From the IMG/VR virus record IMGVR_UViG_2534682307_000021: a DNA stretch of 5,665 nucleotides; one strand, 5' to 3'. Under the pieces are notes generated by a model, which did no database searches, was not told the origin of the DNA, and was given only the letters and a program-made list of their open reading frames with translations. Position numbers and translations under genes: made by a program. This DNA comes from a virus (taxonomy: Duplodnaviria; Heunggongvirae; Uroviricota; Caudoviricetes). Positions within the stretch are counted from its first letter, which is position 1; each line of letters begins with the position of its first letter. This document shows positions 59-5,585 of the stretch, piece by piece.

Positions 59-80
59 AAAGTTACACGAAAAGTTACAC
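59..80 (+). promoter_or_regulatory. Two direct 10-bp iterons AAAGTTACAC (59-68, 71-80) directly upstream of the terS-like gene; candidate operator or TerS/pac recognition element
   Basis: Exact 10-bp direct repeat with 12-bp start-to-start spacing, 13 nt upstream of the GAGG RBS (93-96) and ATG 103. The same motif recurs inside the downstream gene at the same 12-bp phase. Confidence 0.4.
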
Positions 81-102
81 CCCCTCAAAACGAGGTTTTT
101 GC

Positions 103-591
103 ATGGCATTAACGACCAAAAAAAAGCGGTTTGCTGATGCGTTATCAAGGGGCGCAAATCCCACGGAAGCCGCTATACATGCGGGATACAGCGAAAAGAC
201 CGCAAGGGTTAAAGGCTGGCAGCTATCCAACGATCCTGAGGTGAAAAAGTATCTTAAGGCTGTAACTTCTGATGTAACTTTTCAGGTTACAAAACCGAAA
301 AAAGTTACAAAGAAAGTTACCGAAAAAGTTACACCGGAACGGGCATCAATTAACACCATTGAGATGATGGATAACGGCCTACCCGACCCCATCAAAGCAA
401 TGGGCAGGATACTGATTGACAACATGGACACAGATCCAAAACTGGCTTTAGATGCCGCGTTTAAGCTGGCCCAGTTCACCCACCGCAAGATCGGCAGCAT
501 TGGGAAAAAAGAGGTTAAAAAACTCAATGCCGCTAGTGTCTACTCAAATCGGTTCCCCATCCCTAAGCCACCAACAGACTTAAAACACTGA
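103..591 (+). CDS. Terminase small subunit-like protein (Terminase_2 / phage P27-type N-terminal DNA-binding domain), 162 aa
   Basis: ORF with GAGG RBS 6 nt upstream. N-terminus KKKRFADALSRGANPTEAAIHAGYSEKTARVKGWQLSNDPEVKKYLK fits the conserved TerS HTH pattern (KQxRF..EY...N.T.AAI.AGYS.KTA....LL.N..V..YI) as I recall it. Size is typical for TerS. Not verified by a search. Confidence 0.7.
   Translation: MALTTKKKRFADALSRGANPTEAAIHAGYSEKTARVKGWQLSNDPEVKKYLKAVTSDVTFQVTKPKKVTKKVTEKVTPERASINTIEMMDNGLPDPIKAMGRILIDNMDTDPKLALDAAFKLAQFTHRKIGSIGKKEVKKLNAASVYSNRFPIPKPPTDLKH
262..334 (+). repeat. Array of six GTTAC/GTAAC cores at 12-bp phase inside the terS-like gene (two inverted, four direct; three full AAAGTTAC[A/C] iterons at 301, 313, 325)
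   Basis: Cores at 262, 274 (GTAAC), 286, 304, 316, 328 (GTTAC); spacing 12,12,18,12,12. Encodes a (x-V-T-x)n stretch AVTSDVTFQVTKPKKVTKKVTEKVTPE. Last iteron AAAGTTACACC (325-335) matches the upstream copy at 71-81. Confidence 0.55.
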
Positions 592-1693: not shown

Positions 1694-1719
1694 CCCGATA
1701 TGGGGATCACCATATCGGG
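1694..1719. repeat. Perfect palindrome P1: CCCGATATGG-GGATCA-CCATATCGGG (10-bp arms, 6-bp centre containing GATC)
   Basis: Read directly; the arms are exact reverse complements. Lies 16 nt after the capsid-like gene stop, with no following T-tract, so not a typical intrinsic terminator. Confidence 0.85.
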
Positions 1720-1722
1720 GAA

Positions 1723-1805
1723 GCACCTGAATCATCATTACCGTGATCAAGGGTATGTAAAGCCCACCAGCCTGATTAACGTTTAACCGGAAAAAAAGCC
1801 AGGTA
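1723..1805. repeat. 83-bp direct repeat DR-A, copy 1
   Basis: GCACCTGAATCATCATTACCGTGATCAAGGGTATGTAAAGCCCACCAGCCTGATTAACGTTTAACCGGAAAAAAAGCCAGGTA; 81/83 identical to copy 2 at 2260-2342. Confidence 0.85.
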
Positions 1806-1835: not shown

Positions 1836-1899
1836 GGATACGGCGGTAACTGGTTGATATTTTCGAAATTCGCCAGCGGCGAACATCGGGGAAACCAGC

Positions 1900-1918
1900 C
1901 TAACCCGTTGATTCTTCC
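1900..1918. repeat. 19-bp conserved box, copy a (CTAACCCGTTGATTCTTCC)
   Basis: 18/19 identical to copy c and 16/19 to copy b; abuts the hairpin at 1918-1944. Confidence 0.7.
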
Positions 1919-1944
1919 CAATTTCCACAGACTGCGGAAATTGG
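1918..1944. repeat. Inverted repeat / hairpin CCAATTTCC-(9 nt)-GGAAATTGG
   Basis: 9-bp perfect arms with a 9-nt loop, read directly. Confidence 0.75.
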
Positions 1945-2026
1945 CGCGGTAACTTACTGAGATTAAAGCAAAGCGCAAAATTGCGTTGGCTGGTGGGCCT
2001 GATGCCGATAACTGGTTGGAATTGTT

Positions 2027-2050
2027 CCATAGTGCAAAATTGCACTATGG
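2027..2050. repeat. Palindrome CCATAGTGCAA-AA-TTGCACTATGG (11-bp arms)
   Basis: Read directly. Shares the core CAAAATTGC with a weaker palindrome at about 1971-1983 (GCGCAAAATTGCG). Immediately precedes box copy b. Confidence 0.75.
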
Positions 2051-2051
2051 C

Positions 2052-2070
2052 CTAACCCATTGATTATTTC
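2052..2070. repeat. 19-bp conserved box, copy b (CTAACCCATTGATTATTTC)
   Basis: 17/19 identical to copy c; followed by palindrome CCCCCA-T-TGGGGG (2076-2088). Confidence 0.65.
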
Positions 2071-2105
2071 GAAAACCCCCATTGGGGGATGTTGGGAAAG
2101 TAAGA

Positions 2106-2124
2106 CTAACCCATTGATTCTTCC
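2106..2124. repeat. 19-bp conserved box, copy c (CTAACCCATTGATTCTTCC)
   Basis: Followed by palindrome CCTCAA-T-TTGAGG (2130-2142). A further palindrome TGGTCAT-A-ATGACCA lies at 2174-2188. Confidence 0.7.
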
Positions 2125-2259
2125 ACAATCCTCAATTTGAGGAGATCGGAAACATCACCCTTCAAATTCTGAATGGTCATAATGACCACGCAGACCATCA
2201 AGGCAACCACAACGAACATCGTTACGGTTGGAGCTTTTACCCCACTGGGGAAAAGGTAC

Positions 2260-2342
2260 GCACCTGAATCATCATTACCGTGATCAAGGGTATGTAAAGG
2301 CCACCAGCCTGATTAACATTTAACCGGAAAAAAAGCCAGGTA
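2260..2342. repeat. 83-bp direct repeat DR-A, copy 2
   Basis: 81/83 identical to 1723-1805 (mismatches at 1764/2301 and 1781/2318). Followed by a degenerate P copy (2343-2364, GTGGGGATACCCATATCGGGG) and preceded by palindrome CCCCA-C-TGGGG (2241-2251). Confidence 0.85.
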
Positions 2343-2455: not shown

Positions 2456-2458
2456 AAC

Positions 2459-2482
2459 GGTGTAGTTAATGGTGTAGTTAAT
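2459..2482. repeat. Perfect tandem duplication of 12-mer GGTGTAGTTAAT
   Basis: Two identical adjacent 12-mers, followed by an AT-rich tract (2483-2575) containing palindrome GATAG-TTAT-CTATC (2556-2569). Confidence 0.75.
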
Positions 2483-2655
2483 TTCGCTGTTTTTGACGGA
2501 GTTGTTATTTGTAACATAGTGAAAAATAAAGACTAATCAATGAAATGTTATAAATGATAGTTATCTATCATGTGGAGTAGATTGGTCAGGCAAATAAGCT
2601 CTTGTCAGCGGCAGGGCGTTCTGCCGATAACCGTAACCGAAGATGATAACTGACA

Positions 2656-5497: not shown

Positions 5498-5585
5498 GTT
5501 CACTGCCGTACAGGCAGCTTAGAAATTCACTGGTAACATACTCCACCCGCCCACCATGTTCACTGCCGTACAGGCAGATAAAATG
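5498..5585 (+). CRISPR. Orphan type I-F CRISPR mini-array: 28-bp repeat, 32-bp spacer, degenerate terminal repeat; no cas genes in window
   Basis: Repeat 1 (5498-5525) GTTCACTGCCGTACAGGCAGCTTAGAAA matches the E. coli/Yersinia type I-F repeat, including the CTGCC-GTACA-GGCAG Cas6f hairpin. Spacer 5526-5557 TTCACTGGTAACATACTCCACCCGCCCACCAT. Repeat 2 (5558-5585) matches the first 20 nt, then diverges (23/28). Location downstream of clpA fits the known E. coli I-F locus position. Confidence 0.85.

Follow-up and report, generated by a model that had tools for sequence, protein, structure and literature searches.

The stretch of DNA analysed here, referred to as the window, comprises the 5,665 nt of IMG/VR virus record IMGVR_UViG_2534682307_000021. 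Up to about position 2550 it represents the right (attR-proximal) end of a phage satellite of about 9 kb, which is of the phage-inducible chromosomal island (PICI) type, and 100% identical copies of the window are found in many E. coli genomes of O157:H7/O103/O121 type. A non-coding stretch of about 870 bp, reaching from the last satellite gene to the right attachment site attR, harbours the element with which we are concerned: an array of six co-oriented composite units of about 50 bp (1845-2157, plus strand), each consisting of an integration host factor-type (IHF-type) box and a palindrome. The array is a real, strongly non-random and conserved feature, and units of the same kind occur singly within the roi genes of lambdoid phages. 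The array and its units are located as follows.

1845-2157, plus strand: whole array of six units; minus-strand reading gives the IHF consensus WATCAANNNNTTR
1845-1891, plus strand: unit 1, with box GGTAACTGGTTGATATTTTC (1845-1864; diverged box GGTAACTGGTTGATA), perfect IHF consensus at 1847-1859 and palindrome TTCGCCAGCGGCGAA at 1869-1883
1900-1946, plus strand: unit 2, with box CTAACCCGTTGATTCTTCC, perfect IHF consensus at 1901-1913 and palindrome CCAATTTCCACAGACTGCGGAAATTGG at 1918-1944 (13-bp arms, one mismatch)
1948-1994, plus strand: unit 3, with diverged box GGTAACTTACTGAGATTAAA (GGTAACTTACTGAGA at 1948) and palindrome (A)GCGCAAAATTGCG(TT) at 1972-1987
2007-2051, plus strand: unit 4, with diverged box GATAACTGGTTGGAATTGTT (GATAACTGGTTGGAA at 2007) and palindrome CCATAGTGCAAAATTGCACTATGG at 2027-2050 (perfect, 11-bp arms)
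2052-2098, plus strand: unit 5, with box CTAACCCATTGATTATTTC, perfect IHF consensus at 2053-2065 and palindrome CCCCCATTGGGGG at 2076-2088
2106-2157, plus strand: unit 6, with box CTAACCCATTGATTCTTCC, perfect IHF consensus at 2107-2119 and palindrome TCCTCAATTTGAGGA at 2129-2143

The three 19-bp boxes of a preliminary description of this DNA, at 1900, 2052 and 2106 (units 2, 5 and 6), are exact on the plus strand, and the palindromes which it placed at 1918-1944, 2027-2050, 2076-2088 and 2130-2142 were confirmed. Its count of three copies was too low, as diverged boxes are also found at 1845, 1948 and 2007, with their own palindromes at 1869-1883, 1972-1987 and 2027-2050, resulting in six units. 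The last of these palindromes had been paired with the box at 2052 but belongs to the unit at 2007, because that unit has a diverged box of its own. Nor is the spacing within a unit irregular: in all six units the palindrome centre is found 29-30 nt past the T of TAAC, and the distance from one unit start to the next is 44-59 bp.

A chance origin of the array is excluded for statistical reasons. At least three matches to the 19-bp box pattern were obtained in none of 200 shuffles. When the region 1841-2200 was shuffled with preservation of dinucleotides (n = 5000), the mean was 0.07 anchors, compared to 6 observed, and 0.0004 strict units, compared to 5 observed. A comparable palindrome at the same offset exists at 0.9% of the window positions.

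All six boxes match or approximate the IHF consensus YAANNNNTTGATW. On the minus strand, the box reads AATCAATGGGTTA and thus represents WATCAANNNNTTR, the classical IHF consensus; the preliminary description had not recognised the box as a known E. coli element. Four perfect matches to WATCAANNNNTTR occur on one strand within 273 bp, and the whole window has 6, while 0.29 would be expected. The differences between box variants (CCCR, CTGG, ACCG, GTTA and ATCA), both here and in related loci, fall on N positions of the consensus. Strong IHF sites carry an A/T-rich element on the WATCAA-proximal side, and the spacers TTTTCGAAAT, TTTCGAAAA and CTTCCACAAT appear A/T-rich on that side. We therefore regard the boxes as predicted IHF-binding sites.

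The second home of the unit became apparent from a blastn comparison with GenBank phages. The only piece of the window that matched, 2101-2157, corresponds to the inside of roi of Stx1a phages and of phage JLK-2012, on the opposite strand, with unit 6 being identical to roi codons ~36-57 at 53 of 57 positions. Unit 5 is identical at 40 of 46 positions to a different roi allele (helix KVKQSIERL, palindrome CCACCATTGGGGG), and unit 2, which has a relative in the capsid-forming PICI (cf-PICI) L003 at 6004, is partly roi-like. Units 1, 3 and 4 are array-specific types; the class of unit 3 is found in arrays only and has a stop codon in the roi frame (manual reading). The Roi protein combines a KilAC/ANT domain with a helix-turn-helix (HTH) domain of the Phage_pRha type.

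When IMG/VR was scanned for the pattern of the box, and twice more for the diverged boxes, about 150 loci were retrieved. These form two clean classes, single units in roi-like open reading frames (ORFs; 240-300 aa) versus non-coding arrays with 2-7 strictly detected units, all co-oriented. The units of the window are non-coding and in tandem, outside any roi (Phage_pRha + ANT) coding sequence. The fetched loci (1.4 Mb) contain 117 distinct anchored sequences with a palindrome of at least 5 bp, of which 86 have the palindrome centre at 28.5-30, and about 15 palindrome types were distinguished. A scan of genome contigs with a 15-base pattern resulted in chance matches only, scattered across unrelated phyla.

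As ascertainment by the box had to be avoided, Roi homologues were also gathered by protein similarity. They represent four alleles. In each of these, identical codons (I-N-x-L-G) carry the IHF consensus and the offset of the palindrome is unchanged, and the residues encoded by the palindrome vary between them (PPALQH, NPPMVV, LPQIEV and LPALQV). The palindrome is thus kept despite residue changes, which is a constraint on the unit within roi at the level of DNA. In roi of HK022 (L153 4770-4825), TAAATCATTGATT is followed by CTGCAATGCAG, with the palindrome centre at 29. Distant Roi homologues, from Klebsiella, Pseudomonas and Hamiltonella phages (L355, L356 and L357), have kept the palindrome of 13-15 bp while the IHF box is missing: TCCTCAATTTGAGGA occurs in the roi-like genes of Klebsiella phage ST340-VIM1phi10.1 and Hamiltonella phage APSE-8, and CCTGCAATGCAGG in that of Pseudomonas phage LESphi2, where the codons CCT and GCA are, in our own judgement, non-preferred in the host. 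Relatives of the Roi N-terminal domain exist in 546 GenBank phage records; a sequence search found no solved structure resembling this domain. The conservation of the palindrome across distant hosts, and its agreement with the putative recognition helix, suggest that a self-encoded operator may be a general property of the Roi antirepressor family.

The class of the palindrome tracks the putative recognition helix that is encoded just upstream, with six classes being distinguished. The helix NVKRTIE[TM]L pairs with CCTCAATTTGAGG, the helix NV[KR][VI][SA]I[DE]RL with CCTGCA.TGCAGG, and the helix KVKQSIERL with CC(C/A)CCATTGGGGG, while three more helix-palindrome pairs follow the same pattern. 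Roi is reported to bind a site in its own gene near an IHF site, with IHF stabilising the complex, and the consensus and palindrome detected in roi of HK022 agree well with such a site. Clerget & Boccard (J Bacteriol 1996) described Roi as a protein that binds DNA and has a connection to IHF. A link to IHF has likewise been reported for the rha genes, which are related to roi, with Friedman's work being cited for the same phenotype.

Palindromes whose sequence varies freely while symmetry is kept would also be expected of structure-forming DNA, in which hairpins or cruciforms serve priming, replication or a junction-specific enzyme, with IHF only aiding extrusion, and several array units do have 11-13-bp arms with A/T-rich centres. 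We consider this very unlikely. Stable extrusion would require longer arms than the 5-7 bp found in most units, the origins mapped in PICIs are located beside the primase gene (PMC10111431), and the covariation between Roi helix and palindrome would be left unaccounted for.

The relationship to roi also raises the question of an element acting at the RNA level. A plus-strand transcript, originating from the late operon of the PICI, would be antisense to about 50 nt of roi mRNA per unit and so silence roi of the helper; or the minus strand would provide the hairpin-rich 3' region of a short transcript starting in the right copy of D1, an 88-bp direct repeat which flanks the array. Over a length of 57 nt, unit 6 shows 93% complementarity to a roi mRNA, and the units follow the roi alleles even in the spacer. 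The array region folds far better than shuffled sequences (z about -4.8), but both strands do so equally well, as would any palindrome, and therefore no strand signal can be derived from RNA folding. G.T mismatches mildly outnumber A.C mismatches on the plus strand, at outer helix positions; as base composition and the kinship of the units both confound this excess, we did not make use of it. The loops have just 1-3 nt. No Rfam family was found inside the array when the whole window was scanned, and a scan for intrinsic terminators (a G+C-rich hairpin followed by a T run) detected none on either strand within 1600-2700. A promoter scan gave weak promoter-like sites only, one of them on the minus strand in D1, where the short transcript would start. 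Units 3 and 4 match no roi allele, and the extended palindromes of the array diverge from roi, which reduces complementarity. Taken together, we think that a role as RNA is unlikely.

The array is part of an island located between cspD/yljB and clpS, a site that is found empty in island-free strains (window positions 2550-2600 correspond to the yljB region). At the identical locus of FRIK2455 (O157:H7), the gene order is integrase, a 257-aa hypothetical protein, AlpA, an Icd-like protein, a DUF4222 protein, primase, small terminase, a 53-aa ORF and a capsid-family protein. The island has the characteristics of a PICI: int and alpA, a primase/replication module, a few packaging genes, a size of about 9 kb, and att repeats at both ends. 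Both island ends carry a copy of the att core (AATGATAGTTAT.TATCA), together with arm-type repeats, which comprise two copies of GGTGTAGTTAAT and the TGTTCG repeats. The other features of this part of the window are listed below.

103-591: small terminase (Pfam Terminase_2)
754-1677: capsid-family protein (Phage_capsid domain)
1718-1805, plus strand: left copy of D1 (88-bp direct repeat), with the palindrome CCCGATATGGGGATCACCATATCGGG on either side (1694-1719 and 1812-1837)
2160-2254, no strand assigned: conserved block of about 95 bp after the last unit, containing the palindromes TGGTCATAATGACCA and CCCCACTGGGG
2255-2342, plus strand: right copy of D1, 95% identical to the left copy and followed by a half palindrome at 2345-2363
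2456-2479, plus strand: arm-type repeats, tandem GGTGTAGTTAAT, also found beside int at attL; TGTTCG repeats at 2418-2450
2553-2572, plus strand: attR core AATGATAGTTATCTATCA, the right island boundary; from about 2550 the sequence is that of the yljB region of island-free strains

The block of about 95 bp is present in most of the PICI right ends examined, the exceptions being EcCICFT073 and L006. It contains the start of a 37-codon hydrophobic ORF (MFVVVALMVCVVIMTIQNLKGDVSDLLKLRIVEESMG; minus strand, ~2219 to 2106), which stops at a TAG in box 6 (manual reading). A protein-coding interpretation was rejected for the ORFs which cross the array on the minus strand (107, 89 and 37 aa), as the frames are not kept between islands with the exception of this one, which is open in islands L005, L008 and L358 and lacks an obvious ribosome-binding site. 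This region could specify a small membrane peptide or be a non-coding element.

GGTGTAGTTAAT and the TGTTCG repeats, which are located outside the array, are probably arm-type sites of the integrase. A doubled motif near the PICI attP, comparable to the GGTGTAGTTAAT tandem, has been described (PMC10111431). A second arm repeat, GTTATACG, found twice in L001 (5440-5575), accompanies the same kind of array at yejO and yrbL. Near the att core of the phoQ-site islands there is an additional match to the IHF consensus in opposite orientation, AATCAATGGGTTG / AATCAATGGCTTG (L003 6640-6660; L359 4165-4185), which is possibly a genuine intasome IHF site.

The array always adjoins attR, and its IHF-type sites are on the arm opposite to int, as is the P arm of lambda. 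It might thus be accessory architecture of the attachment site, where bends introduced by IHF close to attR help the excisive or integrative intasome. However, about 300 bp separate the end of the array from the arm-type repeats and about 400 bp separate it from the core (the array as such being 300-700 bp from the core), which is well beyond the usual sizes of attP. The number of units varies from 1-8, the same units occur together with two families of arm repeats, GGTGTAGTTAAT and GTTATACG, and both the palindromes and the homology to roi would be left unexplained. We regard such a function as distinctly improbable. Recombination sites had also been considered in the preliminary description, but there is no sign of site-specific recombination between the boxes, the att core and the arm-type repeats being found 300-450 bp further to the right.

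The same kind of array is found at the right end of several other PICIs, and the conservation in homologous islands on which the preliminary description had depended is thus borne out. These PICI arrays have 1-8 co-oriented units and the same position, after the last late gene and before attR, in islands that differ in their late/packaging modules and integration sites. The following islands illustrate the range.

Capsid-forming island beside phoQ in EDL933: HK97-type capsid, portal, HNH, P27-family small terminase (TerS) and large terminase (TerL); seven strictly detected units
Islands beside yejO/narP and phoQ: lambda-type capsid and decoration genes; array present
Second capsid-forming island, beside yrbL: portal, HNH, P27-family TerS and TerL; array present
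Close relative of the window island, at yejO: a single unit kept
Model island EcCICFT073: three units (L359 3650-3850)

The type represented by unit 1 is the first unit in most arrays, and one PICI array has the three main roi-type palindromes side by side. In most other arrays, the first box overlaps the stop codon (TAA) of a 93-aa gene, phrog_1561. Of this gene just the last ~14 nt are left in the window, after the second copy of the 88-bp repeat and the palindrome, and the left D1 copy together with the palindrome CCCGATATGGGGATCACCATATCGGG occupies the place which the gene has in other PICIs. The boundary between the phrog_1561 remnant and the 88-bp repeat looks like a recombinational junction. 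While the array of the window is flanked by both D1 copies, other PICIs carry the right copy alone; because D1 is duplicated here, we suggest that recombination between two satellites brought in the array segment. The 93-aa phrog_1561 protein was also considered as an array-binding protein and was ruled out, as its gene is absent from the window island.

These rearrangements bear on the possibility that the array is non-functional debris or a recombination hotspot, made up of roi-like fragments or of boxes which are kept as microhomology for the shuffling of modules. Arrays are highly mosaic in the number and order of their units, the 88-bp repeat around the array suggests recombinational acquisition, the units resemble roi across the whole ~50 nt, and it is known that DNA of phages is captured in the late zones of PICIs (PMC10111431). 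Nevertheless, the arrays in the loci examined hold the ~50-bp site alone and co-oriented, without flanking roi sequence, and the palindromes are maintained, several of them even lengthened, in a non-coding context. The minimal variant still has one unit at the same place, and this place is constant across PICIs with different integrases and packaging modules. We therefore consider debris or a hotspot to be improbable.

The array follows the packaging genes, and cosB of lambda includes IHF sites, which may be taken to indicate a packaging signal (pac, or an accessory site of cos). This idea was rejected because the array is common to three packaging systems, a Terminase_2 TerS (here), a P27-family TerS with HNH and TerL, and the lambda-type cos/Rpp system, and because cosN of EcCICFT073 is located elsewhere: its cosN pair flanks rppA, outside the array. 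A search with lambda cosN found no similar sequence in the array of the window; likely pac repeats of this island (AAGTTAC, 7 copies) are present in and before terS. A packaging signal is thus largely refuted and, in our opinion, extremely unlikely. The AAGTTAC motif (window 60-332) occurs in both orientations, with two copies just upstream of terS and five inside the gene, while 0.56 copies would be expected; the repeats probably represent the pac/TerS recognition repeats of the satellite. In EcCICFT073 (L359), the two cosN sequences are perfect lambda cosN, in inverted orientation at 2559 (plus) and 3309 (minus), which fits the published cos1/cos2, and L005, L006 and L008 have the same cosN/rppA arrangement.

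Of the explanations considered, we favour, tentatively and with somewhat less than even confidence, that the array is a set of composite operator modules for IHF and Roi-family proteins, which would serve the satellite as a multi-allele decoy or sensor for regulators of its helpers. The general type of interpretation, repeated protein-binding modules made up of a conserved box and a variable palindrome, had already been proposed in the preliminary description and is the one which the evidence favours. In phage roi genes, the palindrome would most likely serve as the operator to which Roi itself attaches, with the neighbouring IHF site bending the DNA and stabilising the Roi complex. A dimer of a Roi-family protein would thus sit on the palindrome beside a box bent by IHF, which in the phage probably results in autoregulation of roi. 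The satellite would have gathered six such modules, with different palindromes and in one orientation, at its attR-proximal end, roughly one module for each roi specificity class; in the window, unit 6 represents the JLK-2012/Stx1-phage class and unit 5 the KVKQSIERL class. When a helper makes Roi early in its lytic programme, the array would be loaded with Roi and IHF, and either the regulator would be titrated or the nucleoprotein structure would be exploited by the satellite. We infer the binding of IHF and Roi to the units from their sequence, and the role as decoy or sensor is a prediction of the same kind.

A broader version of this idea is that PICIs in general keep a library of operator copies from the roi genes of their helpers, with one IHF-assisted module per class, and that the roi operator resides in the codons following the recognition helix; we consider this possible but doubtful. 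A zone with genes of the Bro/Rha network has been reported for PICIs (PMC10111431). The array is not mentioned in the PICI papers examined, including PMC10111431, and full-text literature searches retrieved nothing that joins PICI with Roi, or the Roi protein with IHF.

Several observations weigh against the proposed operator modules. Units 3 and 4 are at least two positions off the IHF consensus (manual count), and units 1, 3 and 4 are without a known cognate roi allele. Some of the array palindromes have arms of 11-13 bp, more than is needed for the operator of an HTH dimer, and this length hints that symmetry, or the capacity to form hairpins or cruciforms, has itself been selected. The agreement of the units with roi alleles extends into the spacer that separates box and palindrome, which would equally be expected from recent recombination or from selection for RNA complementarity. 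According to domain annotation, no Rha, Bro or ANT protein is encoded in the island. The roi gene of 933W has a degenerate site only. Linkage rather than recognition could account for the covariation of helix and palindrome, because both are within 60 nt; it contributes to the covariation but leaves the maintained symmetry in every class unexplained. Finally, lambda, which is one helper of EcCICFT073, is not known to carry roi, and because of this the array cannot be indispensable when other helpers of this kind induce a satellite.

The ways in which PICIs of Gram-negative bacteria sense and manipulate their helpers are understood only in part, and the mechanisms that are known act through proteins (AlpA, Rpp). 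An array that mimics a regulatory site of the helper would represent an interaction between satellite and helper at the level of DNA, and, if the proposed role is correct, could enable a satellite to sense an early regulator made by many different helpers, or to neutralise it. The analysis also offers a candidate operator, embedded in its own coding sequence, for the widespread and poorly understood Roi/Rha family. EcCICFT073, being a model island with a three-unit array, makes the idea directly testable.

The array shares properties with several known systems. The closest is the intragenic Roi/IHF site in roi of HK022, where, as in the units, an IHF consensus is accompanied by a palindrome whose centre is at a distance of 29 bp, the sequences belonging to the same family. 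The phage site exists as a single copy inside a coding sequence, on the complement of the coding strand, whereas the window has six tandem non-coding units which differ in their palindromes and are part of a satellite lacking roi. The IHF sites of lambda attP (H') and cosB (I1) match WATCAANNNNTTR, as do the boxes, and have an A/T-rich flank, which the boxes may share, but they are single sites integrated with those for Int, Xis or terminase, while the boxes are in tandem, each with a different dyad.

An IHF consensus associated with palindromes is also characteristic of the repetitive IHF-binding palindromic elements and type 1 bacterial interspersed mosaic elements of E. coli (RIP/BIME-1), which are repeated in the genome. 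The units differ from these in that their palindromes are short and variable, and in being confined to phages and satellites rather than to the ends of chromosomal operons. Identity with repetitive extragenic palindromes (REP) or BIMEs was rejected, as no REP-like match exists in 1680-2400 even when three mismatches are allowed. The nut sites of lambdoid phages, with a conserved boxA and a phage-specific boxB hairpin, follow the same logic as a box with a variable dyad. They differ in acting as RNA, in their 5-nt loop and in the sequence of the box, and no boxA-like sequence was seen by eye in the array.

There is a superficial likeness to arrays of clustered regularly interspaced short palindromic repeats (CRISPR), as a repeated box is combined with variable segments which match phage genes. 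Identity with CRISPR was rejected, as the boxes are degenerate, the unit lengths are 44-59 nt, the palindromes are unequal, cas genes are lacking, and Rfam CRISPR-DR4 is found only at 5498-5585; the preliminary description had likewise seen neither a CRISPR nor a simple tandem repeat, in agreement with the absence of any Rfam match from the array. The CRISPR-DR4 matches correspond to two type I-F CRISPR repeats GTTCACTGCCGTACAGGCAG downstream of clpA, at 5498-5525 and 5558-5585 (50.1 and 29.7 bits). In a window without cas genes, this pair looks like an orphan two-repeat remnant.

In its proposed function, the array corresponds to decoy or titration clusters such as datA for DnaA, where a regulator is sequestered by many sites and IHF acts as cofactor. 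In sequence, datA and the array are unrelated, and the sites of the latter would suit several different foreign regulators. The array is best regarded as the Roi site of lambdoid phages, an IHF-assisted site of known kind, in an arrangement that is new: in tandem, non-coding, carried by a satellite and with multiple specificities.

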